Assembly: GCA_000960865.2 (NCBI GenBank)
Contig: JZWU02000002.1
Span: 1 to 32,000, forward strand
Direction of reading: 5' to 3'
Length of the DNA stretch: 32,000 nt
Origin: Vulcanisaeta sp. AZ3
Lineage (GTDB): Archaea; Thermoproteota; Thermoprotei; Thermoproteales; Thermocladiaceae
Shown here: piece by piece, positions 1 through 28,582 of the stretch
Position numbering within the stretch: position 1 is the stretch's first letter
Layout: the number at the start of each line of letters is the position of its first letter
Translations under genes and position numbers: made by a program
Notes under the pieces: generated by a model
What the model saw: the letters and a program-made list of their open reading frames with translations, nothing else
The model's database searches: none
What the model was told of the DNA's origin: nothing

Positions 1-98
1 AATGAACATTTAGCAATCGAGGTTACAAAATGCCTATCCTTACTCTGCAACCGATTAAGCAAATAATTAGCCAGGTCCATTATCTCCTCTAAACCCAT
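1..98 (-). CDS. hypothetical protein, N-terminal fragment (gene continues off the left edge)
   Basis: The ATG at 98-96 shares one base with the TAA of the upstream ORF (TAATG). The frame stays open to position 1 (MGLEEIMDLANYLLNRLQSKDRHFVTSIAKCS...). No motif recognised. Confidence 0.3.
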   Translation of the reverse strand, partial: MGLEEIMDLANYLLNRLQSKDRHFVTSIAKCS

Positions 99-928
99 TA
101 CCAAATCACCCTCACTCCAGCCTTTGTTAATTCCCGCTTCATATAATCCAAGTAATTCTCAAGCAATTCCTTCGCGGGTAAAATAGTCTCGTGCGAGCTC
201 CTAGACCTCATTACGCATATATCACTAAACCTACAGACTTTACATGAGGTCGTCTTAGTTACCAAGGCACCAATATCACCACCCTCCGCAGCCTTAACCC
301 AAATCTTAAAGGCATATATGACTGGATAACCAACCTCCGGAATCACCTCAATGGGTACTATATTACGTAATATACCATCATTAAGTACCATGTACATAAC
401 ATAGGTATTTTTCTTACCAGCAGCTGAGTAAAAACCAGCCTGTATGAGATCATGCAATAACCTTGTCTTTGTAACCCTACTAATCACAGTCTTAAATTCC
501 AAGTAATAATCACCACAATCCAAGTCCGGCTTCCCCCTCAATGTCCATGAACCATGCACATACATAACCTCAACCCCATCAATACACTTACCACTAAGCC
601 TATTCTTCACCTCCGTGACAGCCAAACTATGTATCATCTTACCTAATAGATGCATTACTATATCACCCCAATCAATACTTGGGGTCCTACCCATTAAATA
701 ATAACTCGGTATTAAGGAGCACTGCGTGAATAAGCCCACTGGCACATTGCCAGGACTTATCTTAACCATGGAGTCCCTTATCTCATTAAAAATAACCCTA
801 CTCAACCCAACCTCCCTATTAACTGCATCACCAACCTCTTTCATTATGCTCGTTATTGAATAACCCTCCCTTACCAATCTCGTTACTTCCCCAACAACAC
901 TCTTTAAGGTATCAGTTAATTGACTCAT
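98..928 (-). CDS. Cas4-like PD-(D/E)xK nuclease with 4Fe-4S cysteines (RecB/DUF83-type), stand-alone
   Basis: Motifs occur in the canonical order: N-terminal Cys (FTQCSLIPSYY), GKMIH, GKPDLD...YYLEFK (D...ExK), LIQAGFY (QxxxY), and C-terminal CKVCRFSDIC (C-x2-C-x5-C). The ORF track starts at GTG 949. I prefer the ATG at 928 because it lies about 28 nt downstream of a TTTAAATAT box. Confidence 0.6.
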   Translation of the reverse strand: MSQLTDTLKSVVGEVTRLVREGYSITSIMKEVGDAVNREVGLSRVIFNEIRDSMVKISPGNVPVGLFTQCSLIPSYYLMGRTPSIDWGDIVMHLLGKMIHSLAVTEVKNRLSGKCIDGVEVMYVHGSWTLRGKPDLDCGDYYLEFKTVISRVTKTRLLHDLIQAGFYSAAGKKNTYVMYMVLNDGILRNIVPIEVIPEVGYPVIYAFKIWVKAAEGGDIGALVTKTTSCKVCRFSDICVMRSRSSHETILPAKELLENYLDYMKRELTKAGVRVIW

Positions 929-951
929 AACGATAACATCGAAAGACACCC

Positions 952-960
952 TTTAAATAT
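952..960 (-). promoter_or_regulatory. TATA-like box for the Cas4-like gene
   Basis: TTTAAATAT in the 46-bp gap between genes, centred about 28 nt upstream of ATG 928. The spacing fits a leaderless crenarchaeal promoter. Confidence 0.35.
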
Positions 961-995
961 CTGTCTAGCTCTAGACTCAATAATATCAACGCCCA

Positions 996-3002
996 TTAAG
1001 TAAGAAAGTATGATCTCTTCATAAAATCCTCATACTGACTAAGCAACTCCTTACTCAATGACGGACGAACCCTACCCAAGGCATACTCAAAATCCTCCCT
1101 CTTAATCATAATCCTCTCATCACCACCCAAAACCCTATCTAAAGCTCTCATCTTAGCCTCCCTAACCAAAGCCGCAATATCCGCACCACAATAACCCTCA
1201 GTCCTATCAGCAATCCAATCAATAACCTCATCCTCAACCACGGCATTCCTAATATGAACCCTTAAAATCTCACGCCTAGCCTCACGATTAGGCGGCGGTA
1301 TATACACAACCTTATCAAACCTACCAGGCCTAAGAAGAGCAGGATCCACAGACCAAGGCCTATTAGTAGCAGCAATAACAATCACATTACCCAACCCCCT
1401 CAACCCATCCATCTCTGTCAATAACTGAGAAATCGCATTAGCCCAAACAATACCCATCGGCGAATCCCTCGGCGGCGCCACGGAATCAATCTCATCAATA
1501 AATACTATCGCCGGAGCATTCTCACGAGCCCTATTAAACGCATCCTTAATAATAGACGCTGCTCTCTCAGGACCCACCCTAGCCAACTCAGCACCACTCA
1601 ACTCCAGGAAATTCGCCTTTAGCATATTCGCCGTAGCCTTAGCCAACAAAGTCTTACCCACACCAGGAGGACCGAAAAAGAGTATCCCGTGAATAGGCTC
1701 AATACCCAACCTCTCCAGAACCTCCTTTTTCTGCATAGACGCAACAACGTACTTATTAATCAAAGCCTTAGCCTCCTCTAAGTCACCAACATCATCCCAA
1801 GTAACCTCCGGAATCCCAACCTGGGGCTTCTCATAAGTCCTAAGCCTATCATACTGAAGCCTAAAGGCTTCATACCTCTCGAGCATGTCATACGTAAGAC
1901 TCGGCTTATACTTACTAATAATTCTCTCAAGATCCTCCTGAGTTATTAACCTCCTCTCCTTAGCAGCCTCAAGAACTGCAGTCCTAACAACATTCATTAT
2001 ATCAGCACCCGTAAACCTATCCGTCAACTTAGCCAACTTAGCATAATCAATAACACCCTGAACAGGCTTCCCCCTAAGCAATGACTCAAATATCCTAGCC
2101 CTAACCTCCTCACTCGGTGGCGGTACGTAAATCACCTTATCAAACCTACCAGGCCTAAGAAGAGCAGGATCAAGTAGGTCTGGTTGATTAGTAGTACCTA
2201 TTATTAATATACTCTCATTACTCTTACTAACACCATCCATTTCACTAAGCAATATATTCAACAGCCTCGGCGTCACATCATCACTCACATACCTAGTCCT
2301 AGCCTTACCAATAGCATCAACCTCATCAATTATAACCACAGACGGCGCATACTCCCTAGCCACCCTAAACAACTCAGAAAGCCTATTCTCACTCTCACCA
2401 TAATACTTACTTAACAATTCACCTAAATTCATTATTATAGTCGTCCAACCCAACCTACCCGCCATCGCCCTAGCAAGCATTGACTTACCCACACCAGGCG
2501 GACCAAAGAATAACACCCCATGTATTGGCATCAACCCATACTTCTGCGATATATTAGCATTCCTAAGCGGCATTAACACTGAAGACTCAATCTCATTCTT
2601 AATATCATCAATCCCAACAGCACTATCCCAATCCCCAGCCATCACCTTTAACTCATCCTTATTCGATATCAATTGATAACCCCGCTCAAGCATTACCATA
2701 GATTTCTTCCTCTCCTCCTCAAACCTAATCTCCACAAGCCTGAAATGCATTATAATCGGGAGTATTGTTAAACTAAGCAGAAGGGCTGGGATCAAACCCA
2801 TAACCAAAGTATTAACATTAATACCCTGATAAAGACTGAAATATGGATTTACATAATAAAGAAGACCAGTTAACAAGGCATAAGCGCCCATAGTACCAAC
2901 AGCCGGTGCAAAAAACCTAACTACATAATTACCATGAGCCCTCAACCTACTCGAAACCACATAAGCGCCATAAGCCGCAAGCGCCATAAGCAGCGGCAAC
3001 AC
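996..3002 (-). CDS. membrane-anchored tandem AAA+ ATPase (CDC48/VCP-like D1-D2 without a CDC48 N-domain)
   Basis: There are two AAA modules with Walker A GPPGVGKS / GPPGVGKT and Walker B IIDEVD / FIDEID. Each is followed by TN..D(L/V)DPALLRPGRFDK(V)(I/V)Y(V/I)PPP. The first ~95 aa are hydrophobic helices (LLTGLLYYV..., LVMGLIPALLLSLTILPIIM). The start is uncertain: GTG 3002 overlaps the upstream ORF by 61 nt, and ATG 2891 is the alternative. Confidence 0.85.
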   Translation of the reverse strand: MLPLLMALAAYGAYVVSSRLRAHGNYVVRFFAPAVGTMGAYALLTGLLYYVNPYFSLYQGINVNTLVMGLIPALLLSLTILPIIMHFRLVEIRFEEERKKSMVMLERGYQLISNKDELKVMAGDWDSAVGIDDIKNEIESSVLMPLRNANISQKYGLMPIHGVLFFGPPGVGKSMLARAMAGRLGWTTIIMNLGELLSKYYGESENRLSELFRVAREYAPSVVIIDEVDAIGKARTRYVSDDVTPRLLNILLSEMDGVSKSNESILIIGTTNQPDLLDPALLRPGRFDKVIYVPPPSEEVRARIFESLLRGKPVQGVIDYAKLAKLTDRFTGADIMNVVRTAVLEAAKERRLITQEDLERIISKYKPSLTYDMLERYEAFRLQYDRLRTYEKPQVGIPEVTWDDVGDLEEAKALINKYVVASMQKKEVLERLGIEPIHGILFFGPPGVGKTLLAKATANMLKANFLELSGAELARVGPERAASIIKDAFNRARENAPAIVFIDEIDSVAPPRDSPMGIVWANAISQLLTEMDGLRGLGNVIVIAATNRPWSVDPALLRPGRFDKVVYIPPPNREARREILRVHIRNAVVEDEVIDWIADRTEGYCGADIAALVREAKMRALDRVLGGDERIMIKREDFEYALGRVRPSLSKELLSQYEDFMKRSYFLT

Positions 3003-3646
3003 ATAAGTACTAGTCCAAGTAGCAAAACCCTAACAGCCGCCTGCCCAAGCCCTGAGAAACCCAGGCTTAAACCACTCAAGGCATTACCCACACTGGCAGC
3101 CGTAAGCGTACTCAGCGGCTGTACTTGACCAGTCACATGGCCAAACCAAGGCATCACTGAGGCATCAGCATTGAGGAGTATTAGAGTCGGAATGTAAAGC
3201 ACTAGGAATGTTATTAATGACTTCAACGGCATCACCCTCCTAGTAACGCCAACCGTAAGACTTGGCGACGTCAGAATTACAGGTATGGACAACACATAGA
3301 ATGCATTAGGCACTATAGACAACTCCCAAGCAAGCATACCAACACCCACACCCAACCAATCAAAAGCCTCAATAAGCACAAGAAGAATCAAAATAAGCAA
3401 CAAAGCACCCAAAGCCGCATACCTATAAACATAGAGCAAAGCCGGTATTAAAATTACAACCATCACCGCAAAGGCAAGCTTCGTACGCCCTGAATAAGCC
3501 AAGGCCGTAGCGACAATAACTATTAACACAGCAACAGGCAATGGATAAAAAGGAAAATCCCACACCAAAGCCATCGCAGAGACTATTAAGTAAAGTACAG
3601 CCGTAAATAACCTCGACATTTCACGCAACGCCCTAGTACTAACCAC
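2942..3646 (-). CDS. polytopic integral membrane protein, unknown family
   Basis: 234-aa ORF with about 6 hydrophobic segments, lying directly upstream of and co-oriented with the AAA+ gene. The last ~20 aa (MCCRCLWRLRLMALMWFRVG) overlap the AAA+ frame and look non-native, so the true 3' end is uncertain. Confidence 0.55.
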   Translation of the reverse strand: MVSTRALREMSRLFTAVLYLIVSAMALVWDFPFYPLPVAVLIVIVATALAYSGRTKLAFAVMVVILIPALLYVYRYAALGALLLILILLVLIEAFDWLGVGVGMLAWELSIVPNAFYVLSIPVILTSPSLTVGVTRRVMPLKSLITFLVLYIPTLILLNADASVMPWFGHVTGQVQPLSTLTAASVGNALSGLSLGFSGLGQAAVRVLLLGLVLMCCRCLWRLRLMALMWFRVG

Positions 3647-3744
3647 ATCACTACCATTATGAGGACCCTTAATAAAATATCAATTAAAATCGCCAATTAC
3701 AACAAAACGAAAACCTCACCTTGAAGAACAAGGAAGAAACTAAC

Positions 3745-4050
3745 CTACTGCGCCTTCTTCTCAGCCCCCTTCTCCTCCGGAACGTTTAGGGTAACCTTCA
3801 CAGTACCATCACTATACTTCGTAACCTTAACCTCAACCCTCCTCGGCGGCTTCTCAATACTCCTCGACCAAACATAATTATTAACATCATTCTCAACCCT
3901 AACCTTACTAGGCTCAACCCTCATATGCCTAGCCACAAAACTCCTAATCAACCTAATGGCATAGGGAGACCTCTTAGTCCTAGAAACCTCCCTAGTCCTC
4001 CTAAGGTTAATCACATAAACTCTCTCAACCTCAACCTTAGCCTCACTCAT
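3745..4050 (-). CDS. rpl31e: 50S ribosomal protein L31e
   Basis: VYVINLRR...[17 protein letters not shown]...[27 protein letters not shown] is the typical L31e core. I prefer ATG 4050 (MSEAKVE) over the track start at 4071. Confidence 0.9.
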
Positions 4051-4083
4051 CAAGGCACAGGAAATGAGCAAGATTAATAAGCA

Positions 4084-4911
4084 TTATTTTTCCCTAAAAC
4101 CACTAAGCAACTCCAGAACCCCAGCCCTAACATAATCCTCATTACCGAACCCCATCACAGTCAATAATTCATAGAGAGACTTAACAGCTGAGGAAACAAC
4201 CAATGGAGTCCTCGTATCCCCAGCAGTCTTAACCGCATAATGCACATCCTTAGCAGCCAAGGCCAACGTGAATGACGGCGATGACCTAGGACTCACCATC
4301 CTATCCAAGTACTTCTCAGCAATCTCCCTAAACACAGTTCTCCTCAGAAGGTCCTTGAGGACACCATCATCAATACCGTAGGTCTTACCAAGCACAACAT
4401 ATTCGCCCAATAAAGCCATTGAACCTATAAGAAATGCATTATAGGCTAACTTCAATGCCATCGCAGACTCAGCAGTTGGCAATCTAATCACAGCACCCAA
4501 CTTATCAAAAACACCCTTAACCCCCTCATAAGTAGCCTCAGAACCCCCAACTAAATACACAGCCGTACCCTTCTCCACATCACCAGGTCCACCAACAACC
4601 GGCGCAGCCAAAAATCCAACACCCGCATCTCTAAGCCTAGCACTAAATGAAGCAACCGCAGCAACACTATATGTACCCGACAAGGCCACAACCTCACCAC
4701 CAACACCCCTAACCATACCTAACGCATTATCATCAGAGACAAAGACAAACACCAAACCCCTAGCTTGAGAAATATCATCAAGAGGCTTAGCCGGTAAGTC
4801 CTTAAGCTTCTCCTTCGTCCTATTCCACGCATACACAGTGAAGCCTTGACTAGCCAACCTCCTAACTAACGCACTACCCATCCTACCCGTACCAACCACA
4901 GTAACATCCAT
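4084..4911 (-). CDS. NAD(P)-dependent oxidoreductase, 3-hydroxyisobutyrate / 6-phosphogluconate dehydrogenase family
   Basis: N-terminal Rossmann motif VTVVGTGRMGSALVRRLASQGFTVYAWNRT. Length and the C-terminal helical domain pattern (ALKLAYN...) fit the family. Confidence 0.75.
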   Translation of the reverse strand: MDVTVVGTGRMGSALVRRLASQGFTVYAWNRTKEKLKDLPAKPLDDISQARGLVFVFVSDDNALGMVRGVGGEVVALSGTYSVAAVASFSARLRDAGVGFLAAPVVGGPGDVEKGTAVYLVGGSEATYEGVKGVFDKLGAVIRLPTAESAMALKLAYNAFLIGSMALLGEYVVLGKTYGIDDGVLKDLLRRTVFREIAEKYLDRMVSPRSSPSFTLALAAKDVHYAVKTAGDTRTPLVVSSAVKSLYELLTVMGFGNEDYVRAGVLELLSGFREK

Positions 4912-4957
4912 ACGATTAGTGAATTCTAGAGCCGAATTAAAAAGTATTATGAATGAA

Positions 4958-5506
4958 TTAACTATTTGATTCAGACCCTTGATTTAAGGATACATTAATC
5001 TTCATTAATGAGAATATATCATCCTCCCTAATCACACTAACACCCGTCGTGCTCGGAAAAACCTCCACCTGTATAACCTTATCAGGATTCTCAAGCCTAA
5101 CCTTATTACTAATCCTAGAGGCTATTGAATCTATAATATCCATCCTATCCAAATCAACACCCCTCTTCCTAACCTCAACCTTATACGTCTCACCAGCACC
5201 CAAGTACCTACCCGCCAAATCAACAGCAGCCTTCGCAATAGCATCCAAGTCCGTCCTAACAGTCCTCATTATAGGAACAACCTTAAGCACAAAACGAGGC
5301 ACATAACGACCACTAACCACTAACTCCTTAACTCTCCTCGTGAATTCCACAGGATCCCCATCAACATAACCAGTTATCAAACCATCAAACCCCGTAAATG
5401 ACGTCTGAGCAATCCTCATACCAATCATATCACCTATATACCTAATCTCATCAGCAGCCCTACCCTCCAACCTCCTCCCTGTGGATATCACAAGGTTAAA
5501 ATCCAT
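4958..5506 (-). CDS. THUMP domain-containing protein
   Basis: About 180 aa. The N-terminus NLVISTGRRLEGRAADEI and the C-terminal half YKVEVRKRG...DIIDSIASRI...ENPDKVIQVEVF match the stand-alone archaeal THUMP pattern. Confidence 0.6.
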   Translation of the reverse strand: MDFNLVISTGRRLEGRAADEIRYIGDMIGMRIAQTSFTGFDGLITGYVDGDPVEFTRRVKELVVSGRYVPRFVLKVVPIMRTVRTDLDAIAKAAVDLAGRYLGAGETYKVEVRKRGVDLDRMDIIDSIASRISNKVRLENPDKVIQVEVFPSTTGVSVIREDDIFSLMKINVSLNQGSESNS

Positions 5507-5609
5507 AACAAAAACTCAACACCCCAACCTAAACACTAATTTATAAACCACACCTATTTCGAGATTATTAACACCCTTAATCCTACAGCGAATCAACAAA
5601 AGGTAATGC

Positions 5610-5618
5610 TTTTAAGAT
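5610..5618 (+). promoter_or_regulatory. TATA-like box upstream of the acidic micro-ORF
   Basis: TTTTAAGAT centred about 31 nt upstream of ATG 5645, in an otherwise unassigned 289-bp intergenic region. Confidence 0.3.
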
Positions 5619-5644
5619 AAGCAATTAAGACTCAACGATCAAGC

Positions 5645-5752
5645 ATGAACAGACTACTTATGGAGGAAGAGGAATGGGGTGAAGGTGAAGGAGAAGGAGA
5701 AGAGGAAGAGGAATGGGAAGAATTCGAAGAGGAATGGGAGGAAGAATTATAA
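5645..5752 (+). CDS. candidate micro-protein (35 aa), extremely acidic: MNRLLMEEEEWGEGEGEGEEEEEWEEFEEEWEEEL
   Basis: ATG...TAA ORF below the ORF-track size cutoff, read by hand. It is a GAA/GAG/GGT-rich patch on a strand that is otherwise G-poor, with a TATA-like box at the right distance. It lies on the opposite strand to both neighbours. Confidence 0.3.
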   Translation: MNRLLMEEEEWGEGEGEGEEEEEWEEFEEEWEEEL

Positions 5753-5795
5753 TCATTATTAAACACAACCCATTAAAATAGAAAACCCACCCACT

Positions 5796-7001
5796 TCACA
5801 CCTCAGCATAACTCAATTGACTAAGCACATAAGCCCTAACATCACTATCACTCGGCATAGACTCAACAGCCTTACCATCCTCCACAAACCTCCTCAAAAG
5901 AGGCACAGGCCTAGAATTATCCGGACAAGGTGCAGGCTCCGAATCCCAGGGAACAACCTGATCATTAAGCGTATCCCCACACCTATAAACCTGCTTAAAG
6001 CCCGGCAACTTACCACGCTTTGTAATTGGAACCCAACGACTACTCTTCTCATCATAAGCCTCCACAATATCCATACTAATATCAACACTCGGCGGGAAGG
6101 CTATTGAAGTGCCAACGCCGAGCATATCCACAATATCCCTAAGCCTAACAACCTCATCCTCATCCACACCACCACTAACAACAATCTTAACATTCCTATA
6201 CCCAGCCAAATCAAGAGTCCACCTAACCTCACGCACAATAGCCTCCATACTACCACGCCTACTACTCGGCGTATCAAGCCTAACACCAAACAACCTATCA
6301 CCAAGCAACTTAGCAGCTAACATAGACTCTTCACGCTCGTCAAAGAAAGTATCAGCCAAAACAATCCTAGGAACACCACTCGGCATCACCTTATCAAACC
6401 ACACCCAAGCCATCGTATGATCCCCAACAGCATGCCTAAACACAATCATTAACGCATGAGGCATCGTACCACTCGGCTCAATACCAAGCAACTTAGCCCC
6501 AATCACACCCGCAACACCATCACAACCACCTATATACGCCGCCCTATCAACCATAGGCTGAACTGCTGGATGAACAACCCTAGCGCCAAAGAATAGACAG
6601 ACCTTATCACCAGCAAGCCTCTTTATCCTAGCAGCCTTAGTAGCCACTGAACTATAATGCCTCAATATACCTAGAAATGTAGTTTCATAAACAGCAAAAT
6701 CAACATAATTCCCCTCAACCACCATAACAGGCTCACCAGCCTTAAACAAAGTCCCCTCAGGCATCGCATATATAGTCACAGGCAACTCCTTAGCCGTCAC
6801 CAAATTAACAACCTCCCTCAAACCAGCAAAAACAGCCCACTTATAATCCCTGGGTAAATTAACAACATGAAACTCAGCCCTAACCCTAACCCTATCAAGA
6901 CCCGCAGCCTTAAGAACATCAACAGTCCTATTGAAATAAATATCCGTAGCCTCACCATTAAGAATCTCCTCATCCCTAGCAACATAAAACAACCTATCCA
7001 T
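5796..7001 (-). CDS. pncB: nicotinate phosphoribosyltransferase (archaeal type)
   Basis: [14 protein letters not shown]-terminus, [10 protein letters not shown] motif, [10 protein letters not shown] and VSGG(V/L)DE are typical of the NAPRTase family. I prefer ATG 7001 ([11 protein letters not shown]...); the Cys/Trp-rich track extension to 7112 looks non-coding. Confidence 0.8.
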
Positions 7002-7108
7002 TGATCGAAATAGGCACCAGCAAATTTTAAGCTCTACACTGCAAAAACTGCCATGACAAACAGAAACTGCACTATTAATTTTTAAGAAACAACCACCTAA
7101 CCACTCAA

Positions 7109-7294
7109 TCACGCAGCCTTATACTTCCCATCAGTCTTTACTACCTTCCCATCCTTCACTAACCTCGTCAACTGGGCCTTAACAACATTAAGCCTCTCCT
7201 CACCAACAGCCCTCGCTATCTCCTCAACAGCAAACTCCTTATCCTTATTACCCGTAAGATAATCCAGAATCTTCTTCTTTATACCCTCGACCAT
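7109..7294 (-). CDS. small winged-helix DNA-binding protein (61 aa)
   Basis: [47 protein letters not shown] has the helix-turn-helix plus wing pattern. It has its own TATA box (7317-7324). Confidence 0.5.
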
Positions 7295-7316
7295 ACAATA
7301 TGAAAGTATTTTCTAG

Positions 7317-7324
7317 TTTTTAAA
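7317..7324 (-). promoter_or_regulatory. TATA box for the wHTH gene
   Basis: TTTAAAAA on the minus strand, centred about 27 nt upstream of ATG 7294. Confidence 0.4.
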
Positions 7325-7464
7325 GACACCGCTTACATATTTTGTGAGACGCAATCCATAACTCATTAAACTAATTAATAATATAAATTAACATACTTCT
7401 AATTAAAAACCAGAAATTTACCGCAAAACCACTGCAACCCCCTCTATTAATAACACATAAACCC

Positions 7465-8580
7465 ATGAAAAATACCATAACCTCTACTCATTATTCACAT
7501 GTAAAAAGAGATTTACACAAGAGAGATTGCTTTTATATGCCCAAACTAGCACTCAAAACTGAAGTGCAAGAGTTCAGGGCATATTATGATAATGGAATTG
7601 TAATAGAATACAAAAGCAAGAAAATAATCATCGACTCACTAAAAAGACCAACAAAGCCATACGACGCAATACTAATAACCCACGGACACAAAGACCACGT
7701 AAACCCCAAAGCCCTCCACGGAGCCTACCCAATAATCATGAGCGAAGAAACAGCCACCATAATCAGAATCCGCGACAATGAAAGACTCAGGTACATAAAG
7801 GCCAACCCAGGCACTAAACTAACCATTAACGACATCACAATCGAAGCCTTCAACGCCGGACACATAATCGGCAGCCTATCCTACGTCCTCGACTTTAAAG
7901 ACCTTAGGATTGGAATCACTGGGGATTTTAACGTCGAATCCTCAATAATACTAAACGGCAACAAAAGCCTACCCGCAGACATCATAATAATGGAAGCAAC
8001 GTACGGAGACCCCGACTACGTATTCCCAAGCAGAGAAACAATATACAACGAATTAAAAACCATAATCGAGAACAACACAAAAAGCGGTAACGTACTCCTA
8101 ATGGGCCAACCACTAGGTAGAGGACAAGAACTAACCGCCCTGCTTAAGGACTACCCAATCTACATAGAACCCAACATAAAGATACTAAACAACGCACTCG
8201 GCCTCAAGTACGGCAAAGTACTCAGCGACTTACCCGAGACAGGCTCAATAATCATAACGGGCACACAAAAAAACTCCATGAATACAATCAACATACTAAA
8301 AACCAAATACAGCTTAACCAAAACCATTGCACTAAGCGGCATGTACGCAAGAGAATCAAGAACCAACAGACTTAGAGCCCTTGGCATTGAGGCAATCCCA
8401 CTAAGCAGCCACTCCGACTTCCCAGGCCTCGTGGATTTCGTACTCAATAGCGAGGCCAAATTCATCTACACTGTTTACGGAAACGCCGTAAAATTCGCCA
8501 AATACCTCAGGAAAGAGCTCAACATCATGGCAAGACCCCTCCCCACACCAAATCAATTAAGCATTGACTCCTTCCTATAA
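7465..8580 (+). CDS. MBL-fold metallo-hydrolase, beta-CASP-like
   Basis: HxHxDH motif (ILITHGHKDHV), later AGHIIGS and GDF, and a C-terminal SSHSDFPGL that resembles beta-CASP motif C. ATG 7537 (MPKLALK...) is an alternative start. Confidence 0.7.
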   Translation: MKNTITSTHYSHVKRDLHKRDCFYMPKLALKTEVQEFRAYYDNGIVIEYKSKKIIIDSLKRPTKPYDAILITHGHKDHVNPKALHGAYPIIMSEETATIIRIRDNERLRYIKANPGTKLTINDITIEAFNAGHIIGSLSYVLDFKDLRIGITGDFNVESSIILNGNKSLPADIIIMEATYGDPDYVFPSRETIYNELKTIIENNTKSGNVLLMGQPLGRGQELTALLKDYPIYIEPNIKILNNALGLKYGKVLSDLPETGSIIITGTQKNSMNTINILKTKYSLTKTIALSGMYARESRTNRLRALGIEAIPLSSHSDFPGLVDFVLNSEAKFIYTVYGNAVKFAKYLRKELNIMARPLPTPNQLSIDSFL

Positions 8581-18871: not shown

Positions 18872-18897
18872 CGTCTTGGGATTAATTTATTATTGAA

Positions 18898-20678: not shown

Positions 20679-20690
20679 TGAGTATCTGAT

Positions 20691-20700
20691 TCGATATCGA
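20691..20700. promoter_or_regulatory. 10-bp perfect palindrome TCGATATCGA between the TATA box and the start codon (possible operator)
   Basis: Read directly from the sequence. It would overlap the expected transcription start. Confidence 0.25.
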
Positions 20701-20705
20701 TAAAT

Positions 20706-21380
20706 ATGAAAGTAATAGTTGCGCCGGGGCCTGTCTCATACCCATTAATAATGGCTACTAGGGTGATTAGGGATTTGGAGCTTGTTTTTGGTAAGGAGGG
20801 TAAGGATGCCTATGCTGTGGCTGATTCCCTTGTATCTCTGGCAAGGAGGGGTCTTAGGCCGAGTGTGGTGACTGTTAGGAGGTTATTAGTAATATACCCG
20901 GAGCTTAGGGGTCCGAATGTTGGTGTTTGGCGTAGGGGTAGTGCGGCTGATGTGTTGATTAGGGCGTATGCGGATAGACTTGGGTTTGGTGGGTTGAATT
21001 TTGTGTATGCTGATGATTGGTATTCATTAAATGATATGTTTAGGTCTGGGCAGGTTCAAAGTGTGGTTCTCAATAAGGCTCTTGTGGATGGTGGCTTGTC
21101 TCTTGAGGATGCCTTAGATTTACCGGGTGCCTGTGGTATATATGTAAATGGTGATTTGCAATACATAATCGATGCGTATGAGGCGGGTATTGAGTTGGTT
21201 AGGGAGGATCCGGAGGGATCTGCTGAGTATATTGCTAGTAAGTTGCCGATTAGGATTCCAAGGGAGTTTATTGTGAATGTACTTAGGAGGGTTGAGTATG
21301 GAATATTTAAACCGAGTATAGATAGTGTGGATAGGTTAATAAGTATTGTTAATAGGTATGGCGTCACCGGGTATGAGTAG
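20706..21380 (+). CDS. hypothetical soluble protein, possibly a periplasmic-binding-protein-like fold
   Basis: 224-aa ORF with normal composition whose 3' end overlaps the MFS gene. No catalytic motif recognised, and the fold suggestion is weak. Confidence 0.5.
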   Translation: MKVIVAPGPVSYPLIMATRVIRDLELVFGKEGKDAYAVADSLVSLARRGLRPSVVTVRRLLVIYPELRGPNVGVWRRGSAADVLIRAYADRLGFGGLNFVYADDWYSLNDMFRSGQVQSVVLNKALVDGGLSLEDALDLPGACGIYVNGDLQYIIDAYEAGIELVREDPEGSAEYIASKLPIRIPREFIVNVLRRVEYGIFKPSIDSVDRLISIVNRYGVTGYE

Positions 21381-22545
21381 GGGGCAGTTTTATGCTGGTT
21401 TGCTTCAGGCCTTGTTGGTGATTGTGCCTCTTACTATTGCTATTAGGGCTTCTAATAATATGTTATTAACGACTATACCTCTCTTGGCTAGGTATGATTT
21501 TCACTTCACGAATGCTCTTATAGGTGTAATTTCGGCTTTAACGTCGTTTGTGACATTCATAAGTAGTGGTATAATTAATGCGAGGCTTAGTAGTGAATTG
21601 AGGAGGGTTGCATTTATAGTTTCGTCCGTGGTCTACGCAGGTGTGTTTCCGCTTTTTGCGTTTTCTAGTGCGTTGACGATTTGGTTGTTGTCGGCCGTGG
21701 CTGGTTTTGTGCTTGGGTTTTTGATGCCTAATGTGATAACGTCGGCTAGTTTATTGCCGAGTAGGACTGATAGGGAGAGGCTTTTGAATATTTATACTTT
21801 GTCCTTGAGTACGGCGTTGGTTGTGGGGCCTGCGATAGAGTCCTTGATACTTAAGTACTTTAGTCTTAGGGAGTCCTTCATTTTCTTCACCATATTCCCA
21901 ATAGTAAGTGTAGTAACGGCGTTTATGTTGAAGTTTCCAGAGGAGCGGGGTAATCGTAATGGCATTGATTTTGGTGTGGTTGTTCATAATCCTGGCTTTA
22001 TAACTGCTGTTCTTAATATAGCGACGTATAACATAGTCTTCTCCTTCTTAATGGCGTTTGGTGGTATTTATGCTAGGGAGGCCTTTGGTATGGATTATTC
22101 TGAGATTGAGATTTTATTCTCTGTATTCTTTGTGGCCTCCTTCCTCGGTAGGTTGTATTTGTCGATTAGGCCTGCGGTGAGGCTTTGGCCTTATATGGCG
22201 TTGGCTGTTATGATGACTGTTACGGGCGTACTCGTGATAGCCCTCACTAATAATCCGTTGGTATATGCTGCGGCTTTGCTTGTGTTGGGTGTTCCGCATG
22301 GTACTACGTACCCGTTGTCCGTGGTCTCCATATCTAGGTCTTTTAAGCCTGAGGAGAGGAATGCTGCGAATAGTATATTCTTCTCCTTCATGATGCTTAT
22401 AGGTATAGTGACGCCTACGGTGACTGGTTATTTGGCTGATTTAATTGGTATTAGGAATACGTTTATTGTCTTGGCGCCGCCGATCATTCTAATCCTACTC
22501 CTAATGCGTAGGTATGTGGTTGCAGTCGATAGGCCGAGGGATTAA
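21358..22545 (+). CDS. MFS transporter
   Basis: About 12 hydrophobic segments in two halves separated by a charged loop (KFPEERGNRNGID). Possible starts are TTG 21346, ATG 21358 and ATG 21373, and all overlap the upstream gene. Confidence 0.7.
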   Translation: MASPGMSRGQFYAGLLQALLVIVPLTIAIRASNNMLLTTIPLLARYDFHFTNALIGVISALTSFVTFISSGIINARLSSELRRVAFIVSSVVYAGVFPLFAFSSALTIWLLSAVAGFVLGFLMPNVITSASLLPSRTDRERLLNIYTLSLSTALVVGPAIESLILKYFSLRESFIFFTIFPIVSVVTAFMLKFPEERGNRNGIDFGVVVHNPGFITAVLNIATYNIVFSFLMAFGGIYAREAFGMDYSEIEILFSVFFVASFLGRLYLSIRPAVRLWPYMALAVMMTVTGVLVIALTNNPLVYAAALLVLGVPHGTTYPLSVVSISRSFKPEERNAANSIFFSFMMLIGIVTPTVTGYLADLIGIRNTFIVLAPPIILILLLMRRYVVAVDRPRD

Positions 22546-22578
22546 TAATTATCTTTACATCAGTGATTCTTTGTGTCA

Positions 22579-23271
22579 ATGCTTGGTTATGTGGTTAGGA
22601 GGCCTGATGTTGTTGGTGTGTTTGTGAGGAGGTTGAATAGGTTTGTGGGTGTTGCTGTTATTAATGGTGAGGAGGTTATGGTTCATATTCATGACCCGGG
22701 TAGGTTGCAGGAATTATTGAGGCCTGGTGTTAGGATTTATGCCTATGAGAAGAGTGGTGGTAAGACTAGGTATTACTTAGTGGCTGTGGATTTAGGTGAT
22801 GAACTTGTGCTTGTGAATTCGGCGATACATAATGACATCGCGTCCTGGCTTATTAGTAATGGTTTTGTCTTGAGGGATTATCGAGTGGTTAGGAGGGAGC
22901 CTGTGTTTGGTTCGGGTAGGTTTGATTTATTGTTAAGGTCGCCAATGGGTATGGATGCCTTTGTTGAGGTTAAGGGTGTTACATTGGAGGTGAATGGTAT
23001 TGCCGAGTTCCCTGACGCTCCTACGCAACGTGGTGCCCGTCACATGATGGAGTTGGCGAGGGCTGTGGGGCTTGGTTATGAGGCTTATGTGTTATTTCTC
23101 GTGCTTAGGTCGAGGGCTTTTGTGTTTAGGCCTAATGAGGCGCTTGATTCTAGGTTTGCTGAGGCGTTTAGGTTTGCGATGAGCCATGGTGTGAATGCAG
23201 TGGCTTATAAGTTAGTCTTGGGTCGGGATTGGGTGTTGAGGCCTGTGGGGCCCTTGAGGGTTGAGTTTTAG
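22579..23271 (+). CDS. sfsA: SfsA-family nuclease (sugar fermentation stimulation protein homologue)
   Basis: [76 protein letters not shown]. The start is ATG 22579 or GTG 22573. Confidence 0.85.
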
Positions 23272-24609
23272 TTATTTAGCTTCGGGGGTGAGTATGTAGG
23301 TGTTTACGTTGGTTCTTGGAGATAATTCGTTGGAGATTGGTGTTAGCATTAATCTCTTAACCTCATTCATATCTCTTGTTTGTGCTAAGACCCATGATAA
23401 CTTAACAAATGCTACCTCTGGTATCATGTCTTCGGCTGGTATTACGCCTAGCGTTAGTAATTCTACGCCTCTTCTGTATACGTTTAGGTTTACTCTTCCG
23501 AATATTGTTTGACTCGTTATAACTATGGGTATGCCATTCTCGATGGCTCTCCTTATTGGATCGAGTAGGGGTTCTCTAACGTGGCCGAACCCTGTGCCTT
23601 CAATGACGATTCCGTGGTATCCCTTATCAATTAGGTGGTGAAGTATTTCTGGGTCCATGCCTGGGTAGAATTTGATTAGTGCGACTTTATCGTCGAATTT
23701 ATTCATGAGTATTGTATCCTCAGCCTTGGACTTGACTTGGTAATTGTTTGTATTGAGTTTGATCTCGAGTTTGTTAATGTCTACGTAGGCCACGGGCTCA
23801 TCATTAATACTTATGAACGCGTCTCTCCTTGAGGTGTGCATTTTCCTAACCCTGGTACCCCTATGCACTGCTATTAAGCCATCATTGGTTGAGGCATGCA
23901 TAATCACGAAGGAGCCTGCAAAGGGGGCGCGGGCGCCCACAAGCACAGCTGCAAGCATATTCTCAAAGGCATCGCTGGATGGCCTATCACTACTCCTCTG
24001 GGAGCCGACCAGTGCGATGGGGCCTGCTGGATTTCTAATGGCAAATGAGAGAGCCGCTGCTGTGTAGTGCATTGTGTCTGTTCCGTGGAGTATAACCACG
24101 CCGGACACGCCTTCCATGAAGGCCTTGTATGTGGCTTCTGCGATTTGGCTCCATCCCTGTGGTGTCATGTCCTCGCTGAAAATTGCCATTAGGTTTAGTA
24201 GCTCCACGTCCGCGATGCTCCTAATCTCTGGGTACATGGCGTATAGGTCCTCGAGGCTGAAGCTTGGGTAGACGGCGCCTGTCCTATAATCGACCTTAGA
24301 CATTATTGTGCCGCCGGTTGCCACTAGTCTAACCCTGGGTAATCCCGTGCTTTCAGCCTTTATGAAATGGCCAATGGGTATTGATGTAACGCCCTTGGAT
24401 TCAATGTGTCTCATTATTTCAACTCTATCGATATTGCTTACGTGAATACCTACGTTATAGCCATTATCGAGCTTGAGAACCATTATGTTAGGATCACCAA
24501 CACCTGGTTTTGGCAGGACAATGCCTCTTAGTGTTGTGCCGTCCTTTAGGTGAATATTAATGTCGTCAAACTCCCTAATCCCGTGCTTGTCAAGGAATTC
24601 ATTAAGCAC
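23272..24609 (-). CDS. gatD: Glu-tRNA(Gln) amidotransferase subunit D
   Basis: An N-terminal GatD-specific domain is followed by an asparaginase fold: ATGGTIMSKVDYRTGAV, ILHGTDTMHYTAAALSF, GSQRSSDRPSSDA, IVIEGTGFGHV. No gatE is adjacent. Confidence 0.85.
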   Translation of the reverse strand: MLNEFLDKHGIREFDDINIHLKDGTTLRGIVLPKPGVGDPNIMVLKLDNGYNVGIHVSNIDRVEIMRHIESKGVTSIPIGHFIKAESTGLPRVRLVATGGTIMSKVDYRTGAVYPSFSLEDLYAMYPEIRSIADVELLNLMAIFSEDMTPQGWSQIAEATYKAFMEGVSGVVILHGTDTMHYTAAALSFAIRNPAGPIALVGSQRSSDRPSSDAFENMLAAVLVGARAPFAGSFVIMHASTNDGLIAVHRGTRVRKMHTSRRDAFISINDEPVAYVDINKLEIKLNTNNYQVKSKAEDTILMNKFDDKVALIKFYPGMDPEILHHLIDKGYHGIVIEGTGFGHVREPLLDPIRRAIENGIPIVITSQTIFGRVNLNVYRRGVELLTLGVIPAEDMIPEVAFVKLSWVLAQTRDMNEVKRLMLTPISNELSPRTNVNTYILTPEAK

Positions 24610-24641
24610 GGTATTCCTATCATGGCAATTGGTTAATAATT

Positions 24642-25007
24642 TTACTCATTTGGTGCTAGGTCTAGTAGCATGTTTATGACCTTGTTGTCGCGCTCTGTTG
24701 AGTGTCTGGTGATTATTATGTACTTGAGTTTGGATAGGGCGTAATCGCTGAGTAGGCCGAAGCCGTTACGTGAGATGCATAGGACTTTTTTACCACTGGC
24801 TAGGGCGTAATCAACCTCTGTCTGATCGCCCACATTTCTCAGTATTATTACATTTACGCCATCTTGTTCGACCACGAGTTCATCATCCTTAACAAGTAGT
24901 AGTGCGCATTCGCCAGGTTTTAGGTCTATTAATACTTTGTCTAGGTCGTTGTAATCGTTTATTCTGACGATCCTAACCATACCGAGACTTATGTACGGAC
25001 TAAGCAT
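24642..25007 (-). CDS. hypothetical protein (112-121 aa)
   Basis: ORF with globular composition directly upstream of gatD (32-nt gap). ATG 24980 (MVRIVRINDY...) is an alternative start. No family recognised. Confidence 0.45.
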   Translation of the reverse strand: MLSPYISLGMVRIVRINDYNDLDKVLIDLKPGECALLLVKDDELVVEQDGVNVIILRNVGDQTEVDYALASGKKVLCISRNGFGLLSDYALSKLKYIIITRHSTERDNKVINMLLDLAPNE

Positions 25008-25080
25008 TTAGTACCCATACTCAAAATAACTAGTAAGCCTAATAACCCACTGATGGCCTTAAAAGGAAACATGATGAGTA

Positions 25081-25536
25081 ATGACCTCAACACTTTGTAA
25101 AGTGCCTGTGAGGTATGAGTATGGTGAGCACACGGCGGATATTTCCGTGATAGCCTATGGATGTACTCTAGAGGAGGCATTTGTGAATGCAGCTTTGGGT
25201 GTTGCGAACTTGACGTATTATACAGATAGGGTTGAGCCTAGGGAGTATGTGGAGGTTAGGGTTAGTGGTGATGATTTAGAGCAACTTCTTTTTAATTGGA
25301 TAGATGAGTATATATTTTTGTTTGACGGTAGGAAATTTGCCTATGGGGATTATTTTAAGGATATTGCGTTAGAAGGGAGTGGGCCTTATAGTATTAGGGC
25401 TTTGGTTGGTGGTGAGCATTTCGATATTAATAAGCATGGTTATAGGGGCTTGATTGTTAAGGCTATGACTTACAATATGATGGAGATAAGGAAAATTAAT
25501 GATTATTGGAGGCTCGTATTTGTGGTGGATATATAA
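25081..25536 (+). CDS. archease
   Basis: [30 protein letters not shown]..., [22 protein letters not shown], and [12 protein letters not shown]...WRLVFVVDI match the family signature end to end. Confidence 0.9.
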
Positions 25537-25545
25537 TAAGGTTAA

Positions 25546-25560
25546 TTTTAAATTTTTATA
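25546..25560 (+). promoter_or_regulatory. A/T-rich TATA region for the small-membrane-protein operon
   Basis: TTTTAAATTTTTATA lies 21-35 nt upstream of ATG 25581, just after the archease stop codon. Confidence 0.35.
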
Positions 25561-25580
25561 CGGTGATTATTACTTCAAAT

Positions 25581-25808
25581 ATGAAGCGAGAGGTTAGTAT
25601 TGCTTTGATTATTATTGGTGTTGCTCTTCTTCTATTTGCATCTGTACTTGCATATTATGAGTTAATCCAGGGAGTGACTATACCACAGCCGCCAAGTCTT
25701 GAGAGTGTTTTGTATGTGCTTGCTGTGGTTACGTATAAGGTTGCGTTTATATCCGTAATAGCTTGGTCTGGTGCGTTATTGATTACTAGGGGGTTGCAGA
25801 ACTTATGA
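25581..25808 (+). CDS. small membrane protein (75 aa, 2 TM)
   Basis: MKREVSIALIIIGVALLLFASVLAYY... plus a second helix VAFISVIAWSGALLI. I prefer ATG 25581 over the track start at 25506, which lies inside archease. Confidence 0.5.
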   Translation: MKREVSIALIIIGVALLLFASVLAYYELIQGVTIPQPPSLESVLYVLAVVTYKVAFISVIAWSGALLITRGLQNL

Positions 25809-26146
25809 GGGTTGTCATATTCCTGGCCTTATTGGCGTTGATTATAACTATCGTTGTCTTGGTGATGTCTGTATCTATGATTAATAGTTTCGGGAGTTAT
25901 GTTAGGGCTGGTGTTTACTCGATGGGTAATAGGTATTATTTATCGCTTAATGTGACTAATCCATTACCACTGCCAATAATATTGGCAATAGTCCAGGGGA
26001 ATGAGTCTATGCAGGTAGTGATACAGCCGTATGGGCATGGTAATGTGGATTTTCCGCTGGTGAGTTTAGAAATTCCTTTAAGGGTGATGATTGAGGTGCC
26101 TGGTGTCTTTAATGCCACGTATGTGGTGACTCTCAATGAGGGTTAG
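25805..26146 (+). CDS. membrane-anchored protein (113 aa, N-terminal TM plus beta-rich ectodomain with NxT/S sequons)
   Basis: ATGA overlap with the upstream ORF. N-terminal anchor VVIFLALLALIITIVVLVMSV; sequons NVT, NES and NAT. Confidence 0.5.
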   Translation: MRVVIFLALLALIITIVVLVMSVSMINSFGSYVRAGVYSMGNRYYLSLNVTNPLPLPIILAIVQGNESMQVVIQPYGHGNVDFPLVSLEIPLRVMIEVPGVFNATYVVTLNEG

Positions 26147-26537
26147 GGATAGGTTAATTAATGGTGCATTTAATGCGGTTACTGACCTTCTATTCCTAAT
26201 ACTAATGCTCATACTATATGCCTTACTAAGCTCATTCCTAATGCACACAACACCAAACATACTAGCGCTAATTCAAGAGTACATTGTGTTAATATTGGCT
26301 TTTGCGATCATAGCCTTCCTTAGGGGTGCTTTGGCGGGGCACGTGTTGGTTTACCCAGTGTTACTTGGGGAGTTTATGTTGGTGACTGCGATTTTTGTCT
26401 CTGTGCCAAGCACAATGATTGTTCATGGGGTTTTGGTGAATGTACAGCCAATAATTTATTTTGTATGGGCTATTGAGGCTGCGTGGATTGTGTACTCAGT
26501 AATCAATCAACTTAATGAAATGATTAAAGATCCCTAA
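26136..26537 (+). CDS. small membrane protein (133 aa, about 4 TM)
   Basis: Overlaps the upstream ORF by 11 nt and has four hydrophobic segments. Confidence 0.5.
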   Translation: MRVRDRLINGAFNAVTDLLFLILMLILYALLSSFLMHTTPNILALIQEYIVLILAFAIIAFLRGALAGHVLVYPVLLGEFMLVTAIFVSVPSTMIVHGVLVNVQPIIYFVWAIEAAWIVYSVINQLNEMIKDP

Positions 26538-26538
26538 C

Positions 26539-27764
26539 TCAACGTAGTGCCTCCTCAATCCTTAACGCCAAATCCTTAATCAACTTACTCATTAGGAATT
26601 GTGAAGCCCTTTCCCTGGCATTTCTACTCATTGCGTCTCTCTCCTCTGGGTGGTCGAGGAGTCTCTCCACAGCTTTGGCGGCGCCCTCAATATCGTCAAG
26701 TCCATTGACGTGTATTCCATCAATGCCATCCCTAATAACCCATTTCTGTCCGTAAATGGCTGATGTTATTACTGGAACGCCGCCGTACATGAACTCTAGT
26801 TGTGTTAGGCCTAGGGCTTCCATTTTACTCATTATTATGTTGACGTAGGATTCCTTAATCAATTTCTTCTTATCCTCAACACTTAACTCGTTTGTTAATG
26901 TGACGTTGCTTAACCCACGGGATTCCCTAACAACCTCATTCCATTGATCGCCTGGCTTGCCTGCAATTACGAAGTGAACATCGCGTCTATGCCTAAGTAT
27001 TTTAGCAACTTGAACAACAGCTAGTGGGTTTTTCTTTCTTCCACTGTACCTAGGTATGCAATGATTTTGTCATCATCTGGTATTCTATACTTAATTCTAA
27101 AGTCGCTCGAGTCAATTGCTCCCAGGTCGGAAACCTCATCATCGTCGATGCCTCCTGGAAATACGTATATCTGCTCAGGCCTAGCGCCCATCCTAACCAT
27201 CTCCTCACCCTCAATGGGTGTAACGCATAGGATTAAGTTGGCGGCCTTGAATATCTCGGGGAATGCCATGTGGTTCCAAGCAAGTCTATACGTCCTCTCC
27301 ACAACATCATACCTAGTTGGGTCTGGTGGCTGGTAATGACTCATATGTGCATAGAATATACTGCCGGACTCTAGACTAAAGGTTGTTAGCATTCTCCTCC
27401 ACATTACGTACTTAGCAGTGTCCTCGGGGCCGTTCCATAGTGTTGAGTGTGTTATTAAGGCATTGACGTTAAAGTTCTCGTTAATCCTCCTAAGTATGTC
27501 CACGAAATTCTTAAACATTATTCTCCTGGGAGGCCATTTGGCCATGTAACTATCAACCCTAATGGTGGGTAGGTTTATGGTTCTATCCTTTTCTTGAAAT
27601 ATGTAGCCCTCGAGTGATGTCTCTACAAGTCTTCTCTTAATGGCTTCATTACCATCATGATAAATGCTCGTTATTAAGTAAGCCTCATACCCAAGCCTAA
27701 GAAACCACTTAACCATCCTCTGGGCCACTAGTTCCTGCCCCTTGGAGTTACTTGTTTGATACAT
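26539..27764 (-). pseudogene. GT1/GT4-family glycosyltransferase interrupted by a single-base frameshift
   Basis: The N-terminal ORF (27021..27839, likely ATG 27764) ends ...IIAYLGTVEERKTH*. The C-terminal frame is open from about 27060 and reads ...KKNPLAVVQVAKILRHRRDVHFVIAGKPGDQ...EALGLTQLEFMYGGVPVITS...DGIDGIHV. Adding one A to the A5 run (T5 at 27029-27033 on +) gives the continuous sequence ...GTVEERKNPLAVV..., which is the normal GT4 junction. Confidence 0.7.
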
Positions 27765-27783
27765 TATTACTCCAACAATCGGC

Positions 27784-28497
27784 TTAACCACCACTCCCAC
27801 CTTCCTTACCCTTTTGTTGCCGACCCCACTCCTGCTCAAGGAATCTCCTTAGGGGTTCTCTGAGGGGTACTGCGAGGACGAGGCCAATGGCTACGCCAAG
27901 CCCTATGGCGACTGCCCAGGCGAGTCCTTGGGCGAATATGTAGAGTATTTCTACGTTAACCTTCATTACGCTTAGGGCTATGGTTATCACCATGTAGTAA
28001 AGAATGAATCTAAAGGCATCGCCAACAAAGTTCAGTAGTGTTTGGGTGTATTGATCATTAGTTGGGTAACTGCGTTTGAAGTAGTCGCTTATCCAATCAA
28101 CCATTATTAAACCAATAATTAAAATTATAATACCAGACACGAGGTATGGTAGGTATGAGAGAACACTTCTTGATGTGTCGTAGAGAAATGATAGATTTGG
28201 ACTTATGTATGATAGTTCGAGGAGTGCGTAGAAAATGGCAGCTATGTAAATAATCCACTTAACAAAGAGGCCTAGGAAGTCACCTGCTGTATAACCGCTC
28301 CTCAGGAGTGCGCGGCCTACGGAGGTTTTCCTAAAGAAGGCATCTAGGCCTGTGGTGTAGGAGATCTTCTTTATGAGTATTTCCACTAGTCTGCCGATTA
28401 CATAACCGACAATGATTATTATGACCGCGGTTAATACAGTGTAGAATGTGCCTTGCGGGATGAAGCCTAATATTCCTGTTGTTTGATTTGTGCTCAT
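27784..28497 (-). CDS. integral membrane protein with repeated TM-helix modules (MscS-N-terminal-like 'conserved TM helix' type)
   Basis: Four or five TM segments alternate with amphipathic loops, and the tail is basic and Gly-rich. The family call is weak. Confidence 0.45.
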   Translation of the reverse strand: MSTNQTTGILGFIPQGTFYTVLTAVIIIIVGYVIGRLVEILIKKISYTTGLDAFFRKTSVGRALLRSGYTAGDFLGLFVKWIIYIAAIFYALLELSYISPNLSFLYDTSRSVLSYLPYLVSGIIILIIGLIMVDWISDYFKRSYPTNDQYTQTLLNFVGDAFRFILYYMVITIALSVMKVNVEILYIFAQGLAWAVAIGLGVAIGLVLAVPLREPLRRFLEQEWGRQQKGKEGGSGG

Positions 28498-28582
28498 TTA
28501 TTAATTAATTATTCATTGTCCTTTTAAGGCTTCCATACGTATTAACAATATTACCGCTATTGAGGCTAATTTTAAGGGAAAA

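Follow-up and report, generated by a model that had tools for sequence, protein, structure and literature searches.

Our study addresses why the two DNA strands of a short archaeal chromosome segment differ extremely in base composition, and why the sign of this difference reverses within the segment. The segment analyzed (hereafter, the window) comprises the 32,000 nucleotides at positions 1–32,000 of contig JZWU02000002.1 of Vulcanisaeta sp. AZ3. We also surveyed the whole 1.5-Mb metagenome-assembled genome of this Vulcanisaeta-related hyperthermophile, which consists of 55 contigs (labeled C2 for the window contig, C3, C6, C10, etc.). The first-pass annotation had described a plus strand rich in A and C on the left and in G and T on the right, and had proposed deamination of single-stranded DNA at high temperature as the cause. 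A literature search found nothing specific on such a skew in Vulcanisaeta or Thermoproteales.

Results

Recounting of the 60-nt samples reproduced the earlier values, for example, A/C/G/T of 35/22/1/2 at 11461–11520 and 4/5/26/25 at 19021–19080. The plus strand of the left block (1–12,700) contains 37.5% A, 30.1% C, 12.9% G, and 19.5% T, the minus strand being keto-rich (G/T), while the plus strand of the right block (13,300–26,000) is itself keto-rich, with 19.9% A, 16.4% C, 27.2% G, and 36.5% T. In 2-kb windows, the GC skew is negative on the left (−0.35 to −0.44 across 1–12.7 kb) and positive on the right (+0.15 to +0.47 across 13.3–26 kb), and it dies away past 26 kb. Both blocks lie tens of standard deviations off the chance expectation (binomial SD of approximately 0.05 per 1-kb window). 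The absolute keto skew reaches 0.25–0.53 in the blocks, compared with a 99th percentile of 0.18 in 2-kb windows of the complete relative G008, in agreement with the earlier claim that the asymmetry is far above ordinary chromosome levels.

The skew is determined by the strand and not by the gene, as the first-pass annotation had held. Fourfold-degenerate sites in 24 Pfam-confirmed genes of the window showed an extreme keto skew rather than values near zero, with one plus-strand sign per block for both gene orientations. In the left block, it was −0.5 to −1.0 (CDC48, HIBADH, THUMP, NadC, MBL, SAM_HAT, Ogt, UbiA, and CPBP), and in the right block, it was +0.4 to +0.97 (Kae1, isochorismatase, class-III aminotransferase, the open reading frame at 17298–18020, SDR, CitMHS, DUF3834, MFS, SfsA, GatD, and archease). 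It was approximately 0 at 26,000–32,000, a neutral region that encodes GT4, MscS, CoxM/S-like, and CoxL-like molybdopterin oxidoreductase proteins and has its G008 counterpart at a different locus (~0.4 Mb). Intergenic DNA also carries the skew, which indicates that the cause is mutational rather than selection on coding. Genome-wide, the composition of 182 ortholog-anchored genes tracked that of the flanking DNA (r = 0.72), alike for plus- and minus-strand genes (r = 0.72 and 0.70), and was unrelated to the orientation of the gene (r = −0.07).

The pattern does not follow chromosome arms, although a comparison with bacterial leading strands had been drawn. Instead, the genome is a patchwork in which skewed blocks of 5–27 kb, some of them one-sided, occupy approximately 13–17% of the sequence and the intervening DNA is neutral. 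The skew showed no relation to distance from contig ends, and block edges showed no asymmetry between the origin side and the terminus side; thus, there is no sign of an assembly-edge artifact or of origin repeats breaking the contigs.

Within the polarity switch of the window (12,700–13,300), the cumulative keto curve reaches its minimum at 13,175, where the genes for an archaeal pilin (12723–13277, plus strand) and Kae1 (13272–14315, minus strand) converge at their 3′ ends with no intergenic space. The change of sign at the switch is of the origin type, as expected if synthesis heads outward, and no Orc1/Cdc6 gene was found near 13.2 kb. The switch falls within a segment of conserved gene order: UbiA-CPBP-pilin-Kae1-isochorismatase-aminotransferase-SDR-CitMHS-MFS-SfsA-GatD retain their order and relative orientations in V. 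distributa, V. sp. JCM 14467, G006, and G008. This synteny in four relatives disposes of the suspected chimeric join at 12.9 kb. Origin-like switches also occur at approximately 45.5 kb of C3, 10–11.5 kb of C10, and 43 kb of C6, and terminus-like switches at approximately 21 kb of C15 and 35.5 kb of C12; the ratio of origin-like to terminus-like switches is about 4:2. Comparison of the contexts on C2 (convergent gene ends), C3 (between genes of one operon), and C10 (a divergent intergenic region) revealed no common feature, and no 12–14-mer (ORB-like) motif was shared across five switch points. Orc1/Cdc6 is present as a single copy in AZ3 and in every relative; the AZ3 gene is located at the end of contig C14, away from the switches.

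Counterparts of three G008 regions are joined as a mosaic in the window. A tRNA-Thr(GGT) gene (10822–10912, minus strand), itself weakly skewed, lies at the junction of a rearrangement specific to the AZ3 genome, and the stretch from CDC48 to Ogt is found in G008 at a different location and inverted. The skew block is uniform across this junction. The syntenic regions of G006, G008, and Vulcanisaeta spp. are without skew, showing that it is specific to the AZ3 lineage, and a strong replichore skew was seen in no relative examined. Being absent from syntenic relatives yet unbroken across the AZ3-specific junction, the skew is set by present genome position and was not inherited with the genes. 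Independent hot-spring metagenome runs contain the same sequence at 95–99% identity. Among strain differences in Logan contigs, which are unpolarized and come from contigs that drop rare variants, consensus transitions predominate (103 of 115 in X2).

Substitutions polarized with two outgroups revealed 102 amino-to-keto changes on the keto strand against 17 in reverse, comprising C→T, A→G, A→T, and G→T. This spectrum fits heat damage to single-stranded DNA, in which deamination is more than 100-fold faster than in duplex DNA (Xia 2012, PMC3269012). The transversions A→T and G→T were as frequent as the transitions C→T and A→G, indicating that deamination is not the sole process and pointing also to depurination with the A-rule and to 8-oxoG. 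The earlier proposal is supported as regards single-stranded damage in a hyperthermophile, which AZ3 is judged to be from its reverse gyrase gene, but not as regards deamination alone. Temperature is not a full explanation, since relatives living at similar temperatures are without the skew. A check for lost uracil or hypoxanthine repair, which had been suggested, covered UDG and EndoV and found no loss; AZ3 has two UDG genes and EndoV, as in its relatives, and loss of these genes is rejected as a cause. A Y-family polymerase was absent from all Thermoproteales searched and hence cannot set AZ3 apart. Localized hypermutation of the APOBEC-like type (kataegis), which produces mostly C→T in preferred sequence contexts and in recent clusters, was also rejected on the spectrum and age of the changes; those in AZ3 include A→G and the transversions A→T and G→T, and are old and saturating.

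Protein replacements go with the same strand bias, as had been claimed. Relative to G008 orthologs, AZ3 genes with a keto-rich coding strand gained 315 F/L/V/G/W/C residues and lost 150, while genes coded on the A/C-rich strand gained 222 K/N/T/P/H/Q residues and lost 48. The claim of dozens of spurious antisense open reading frames is only partly right: stop trinucleotides are approximately 15–20% rarer on the A/C-rich strand and long stop-to-stop frames are commoner there, with 17 frames of at least 100 amino acids on this strand of the right block and nine on the other.

Discussion

Our results demonstrate that the AZ3 skew is real, determined by strand and not by gene, specific to one lineage, set by position, and accompanied by a polarized, damage-type spectrum. 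We consider it probable that, in the AZ3 lineage, one strand has been repeatedly single-stranded and heat-damaged during DNA synthesis that passes through each block in a fixed direction. We infer this direction, and the sites at which synthesis starts, from the polarity of the blocks. In the host, a Vulcanisaeta-related hyperthermophilic crenarchaeon (Thermoproteaceae), some segments of 5–27 kb would be recopied always in one direction over evolutionary time, so that one strand would be left in a long-lived single-stranded state, whether as the template of the lagging strand or as a nascent strand that has been displaced. Above 80 °C, the exposed strand would suffer deamination of C and A (C→T, A→G), depurination followed by the A-rule (A→T, G→T), and guanine oxidation (G→T). 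With time, its fourfold sites would be driven nearly wholly to T and G, and non-synonymous sites would be pushed as well, toward amino acids whose codons are GT-rich for genes coded on the exposed strand and toward K/N/T/P/H/Q for those coded on the other. The polarity switches would be the start sites of synthesis, which from 13,175 would proceed leftward through the left block and rightward through the right block. The block map may thus be a fossil of fixed initiation sites, whether these are several origins of replication or recurrent starts of recombination-dependent (break-induced) replication.

The AZ3 skew can be compared with known systems. Bacterial replication skew has a magnitude of approximately 2–5% and keeps one sign per replichore (hundreds of kilobases), switching at oriC and ter. 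The AZ3 skew is about 10–30 times stronger (fourfold keto skew of 0.5–0.97 against a typical GC skew of ~2.5%), occurs in short blocks rather than replichores, is missing in syntenic relatives, and switches at sites without origin or terminus features. In bacteria, the strand of leading sense is rich in G and T, and deamination of the lagging-strand template while it is single-stranded is thought to be the reason (PMC3269012, PMC8941118). The AZ3 skew is likewise independent of gene orientation, and, assuming outward synthesis from 13,175, the keto strand is the one of leading sense, with G>C and T>A. This agreement with the bacterial convention supports outward synthesis. In vertebrate mitochondrial DNA, C and A are deaminated on the strand that is long single-stranded (PMC3269012). 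This system, which replicates by strand displacement, shares with AZ3 an extreme skew and a protein composition shaped by strand; in contrast, the AZ3 skew is chromosomal, forms many blocks, and has a spectrum in which the transversions A→T and G→T are abundant. We know of no strand-displacement replication in archaea. As in Sulfolobus (three origins) and Haloferax, several polarity switches occur per chromosome, but AZ3 has far more of them, a much stronger skew, and neither Orc1/Cdc6 nor ORB-like motifs at the switches. The amino acid composition of Borrelia and Chlamydia proteins also differs by template strand, following replichores; the effect in AZ3 is stronger and follows short blocks.

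The nature of the start sites can be read in two ways. Multiple bona fide origins, perhaps 15–30 of them, may fire efficiently at fixed sites as in eukaryotes, with skewed blocks adjoining efficient origins and neutral DNA reflecting variable fork direction. The polarity of the four origin-like switches agrees with this reading, several origins are common in archaea, and skew depth may vary with differential origin usage (PMC3269012). However, the single Orc1/Cdc6 gene, the lack of ORB-like motifs shared among the five switch points, the imperfect alternation of switches, and the position of the C2 switch at abutting coding 3′ ends, which is atypical of origins, make it doubtful. Alternatively, replication may restart from recurrent double-strand breaks or collapsed forks, long conservative synthesis leaving nascent strands single-stranded. 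Both ends of a break would then copy outward, giving origin-like pairs and one-sided blocks of 5–25 kb. The observed block lengths, the one-sided blocks, the switches devoid of origin features, and the convergent genes at 13,175, a plausible site of conflict or breakage, suit this reading. Nevertheless, nothing in the data points directly to breaks or recombination at the switches, and to our knowledge break-induced mutagenesis has not been documented in archaea; we regard this alternative as rather unlikely.

The remaining explanations fare worse, and the cause is neither an artifact nor transcription. Mutation of an exposed non-template strand during transcription would produce the damage types seen on the favored strand, but the correlations with orientation and flanking DNA and the skew of intergenic DNA already refute it, barring pervasive one-directional transcription along whole blocks; we give it very little credence. 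A mosaic formed by rearrangement of a once strong whole-chromosome replichore skew, with moved or inverted segments retaining or flipping it, agrees with the origin of the window from three G008 regions. It is improbable, as the skew continues unbroken across the tRNA-Thr junction and reverses its sign within a conserved segment, no relative has a strong replichore skew, and approximately 85% of the genome is neutral. The fragmented assembly leaves room for a chimeric join or strand-specific consensus errors. The chance of this is negligible, given the conserved order across the switch, the lack of relation to contig ends, the presence of the sequence in independent metagenomes, and the full-length intact Pfam domains with systematic amino acid shifts, which demand real evolution.

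Three points count against synthesis in a fixed direction, the explanation we favor. The switches have no origin hallmarks (Orc1/Cdc6 or ORB-like motifs) and no common feature; the roughly 4:2 ratio of origin-like to terminus-like switches departs from the alternation expected of a simple multi-origin map; and UDG, EndoV, and Orc1, being the same as in relatives, do not account for the restriction to the AZ3 lineage. More tentatively, we propose that the chromosome may be copied from a large number of fixed start sites, which could be dozens of origins or else recurrent sites of break-induced or recombination-dependent replication, and that ssDNA heat damage has made the strand-bias blocks a readable fossil of this program. 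One to four origins are known in crenarchaea.

In practice, gene callers will over-predict antisense open reading frames on the T-poor strand, and the blocks may mislead binning or detection of horizontal gene transfer that relies on composition. With synonymous sites nearly fully rewritten and whole-protein composition shifted, AZ3 provides a clear example in nature in which mutation pressure has overridden selection on protein sequence. Since the blocks occur in one lineage only and are tied to genome position, they are expected to mark the regions of fixed-direction DNA synthesis. If so, the number of initiation sites, recombination-dependent replication, and the exposure of single-stranded DNA at high temperature would become questions of archaeal replication that can be tested from sequence.

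Results

The G000 assembly is an archaeal MAG (1.51 Mb, 55 contigs, ~90% complete), and the window, the first 32 kb of its contig C2, carries the archaeal genes CDC48, Kae1/TsaD, GatD, archease and an archaeal type IV pilin, together with Ogt, UbiA, CPBP and a SAM hydroxide adenosyltransferase (called DUF62 in the first-pass annotation). A molybdopterin oxidoreductase at 28583-31980 (-), which combines a CoxL-like molybdopterin-binding large subunit with a fused FAD/2Fe-2S (CoxM/S-like) subunit, is predicted to be of the aldehyde/CO-dehydrogenase type. Kae1 is 78-82% identical to those of Vulcanisaeta distributa, V. sp. JCM 14467 and complete genus relatives. Reverse gyrase is present at full length, which marks the organism as a hyperthermophile.

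In 1-kb windows, GC skew was -0.3 to -0.5 and AT skew +0.1 to +0.56 over 1-12.7 kb, while from 12.7 to ~26 kb they were +0.1 to +0.48 and -0.2 to -0.42, respectively; beyond ~26 kb both were near zero. The + strand contained 37.5% A, 30.1% C, 12.9% G and 19.5% T in the left block (1-12.7 kb), and 19.9% A, 16.4% C, 27.2% G and 36.5% T in the right block (13.3-26 kb). Our recount of the 60-nt samples in the first-pass annotation gave the same values. Cumulative keto (G/T versus A/C) skew reached its minimum at 13,175, where the pilin gene and the Kae1 gene converge at their 3′ termini; T homopolymer indels at 13216-13329 break read-data contigs exactly at this switch. Long spurious antisense ORFs lie on the T-poor strand opposite Ogt (9426-9977, +) and Kae1 (13501-13962, -), with low-complexity translations rich in Q/N/H/P or R/H/P/T.

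At fourfold-degenerate sites of 24 Pfam-confirmed window genes, + strand keto skew was -0.5 to -1.0 in all left genes and +0.4 to +0.97 in all right genes, irrespective of gene strand. Intergenic DNA was likewise skewed (left -0.31, right +0.21), and the tRNA-Thr inside the left block was only weakly so. Among 182 G000 genes anchored on orthologues from a 400-kb sample of the complete relative G008, fourfold + strand keto skew followed that of the flanking DNA, own gene left out (r=0.72; + genes 0.72, - genes 0.70), whereas coding-strand skew had no relation to gene strand (r=-0.07). The sign of the flank was matched by 22 of 23 genes in strong regions. Thus, the orientation independence of the strand-specific skew described from the window is general in G000.

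Skewed blocks, defined by |keto| >0.12-0.15 across ≥5 kb, numbered ~27-42, measured 5-27 kb each and covered ~13-17% of the genome, with neutral DNA in between; across G000 they showed no association with contig ends. The skew was indeed far above normal, but it forms a lineage-specific patchwork rather than the chromosome-arm effect first proposed. The p90 of |keto| was 0.19 in G000, against 0.08-0.17 in sampled relative genomes. Identity to G008 was slightly lower for strong-block genes (71.6% vs 74.8%).

The gene order UbiA-CPBP-pilin-Kae1-isochorismatase-aminotransferase-orf240-SDR-CitMHS-DUF3834-MFS-SfsA-GatD and its relative orientations are kept over the switch in V. distributa, V. sp. 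JCM 14467, G008 and a further relative, G006; the domains of the window proteins are full-length, and the same sequence occurs at 95-99% identity in hot-spring metagenome runs of another study. An assembly artefact is thereby ruled out. In the relatives, syntenic genes had small and incoherent fourfold skews: Kae1 was -0.85 in G000 vs -0.24 in G008, AT3 -0.92 vs +0.01, and the orthologous stretch of G006 stayed within ±0.1 throughout. Elsewhere in G006, two loci (L107, L110) contained a few moderate blocks, with keto skew of -0.16 to -0.19 over ~6 kb.

Compared with the G008 genome, the window has a mosaic structure, with CDC48..Ogt inverted and ~90 kb away in G008. The junction of this G000-specific rearrangement lies at tRNA-Thr(GGT) (10822-10912, -), where all three runs had loose contig ends at ~4× depth; the read data indicate a repeat, or a tRNA-associated element. 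Since left-block skew is uniform through this junction and the 13,175 switch lies within a segment conserved among relatives, the skew, which is lineage-specific, is dictated by the present position of the segment, not transported with the genes.

Taking as ancestral the state on which G006 and G008 agree, 157 of 289 right-block fourfold sites were altered on the G000 lineage. Changes on the keto (+) strand were C→T 35, A→G 30, G→T 28, A→T 28, T→G 10 and C→G 9, with only ~17 amino-ward changes; an unpolarised comparison of the left block gave the mirror-image spectrum on the - strand.

Proteins were reshaped by the skew, as had been claimed. In replacements relative to G008, genes with the keto strand as coding strand gained 315 and lost 150 F/L/V/G/W/C residues, and gained 88 and lost 171 K/N/T/P/H/Q; genes coded on the A/C-rich strand showed the reverse trend (K/N/T/P/H/Q gained 222, lost 48), and replacements in neutral-region genes were balanced.

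Discussion

The spectrum is that of lesions which arise spontaneously in single-stranded DNA: deamination of cytosine and of adenine, depurination with the A-rule, and 8-oxoguanine. Depurination and guanine oxidation are fastest in single strands, and all these lesions are fastest at high temperature. Deamination is also faster in single-stranded DNA (PMC3269012). The earlier attribution to deamination captured the damage-like character but was incomplete, as transversions matter just as much as the transitions that deamination causes. High temperature alone is insufficient, since relatives living at similar temperatures lack the skew, and the suggested check of uracil/hypoxanthine repair revealed no gene loss in G000 (two UDG and EndoV are present). 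Transcription as the cause is contradicted because the skew does not follow the strand of the genes; the data likewise contradict selection, donor segments and rearrangement relics.

The fixed strand within each block, the polarity switches at defined points, the irrelevance of gene orientation, the intergenic skew and the single-strand damage spectrum fit DNA synthesis of constant direction, in which one strand per block would be left single-stranded for long. In the window, synthesis would diverge from 13,175, running leftward through the left block and rightward through the right block, with the keto strand in the leading-strand sense. Given this direction, the keto strand follows the same convention as the bacterial leading strand, in which G exceeds C and T exceeds A (PMC3269012, PMC8941118), suggesting by analogy that this position acts as an initiation point would. 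Two variants of fixed-direction synthesis remain: many efficient origins, or recurrent recombination-dependent or break-induced synthesis at fixed break sites, both ends copying outward. The sole Orc1/Cdc6 gene of G000 (C14:33175-34128, -) is cut off by a contig end, so the main origin region likely lies outside the assembly; each relative also has one Orc1/Cdc6. Comparison of five switch points yielded no common 12-14-mer motif, and the contexts of the switches differ: convergent gene ends (C2), the interior of an oligopeptide ABC operon (C3) and a divergent intergenic region (C10). The C3 switch (C3:44389-48309) falls between co-directional permease and solute-binding protein genes.

In a more distant archaeon (MAG archaeon SMBSF43, JAIOSL010000031; Kae1 46% identical), an 8.4-kb contig is strongly skewed, with AT skew of +0.3 to +0.6 and median |keto| of 0.31. 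The strand-skew phenomenon may occur in other lineages too.
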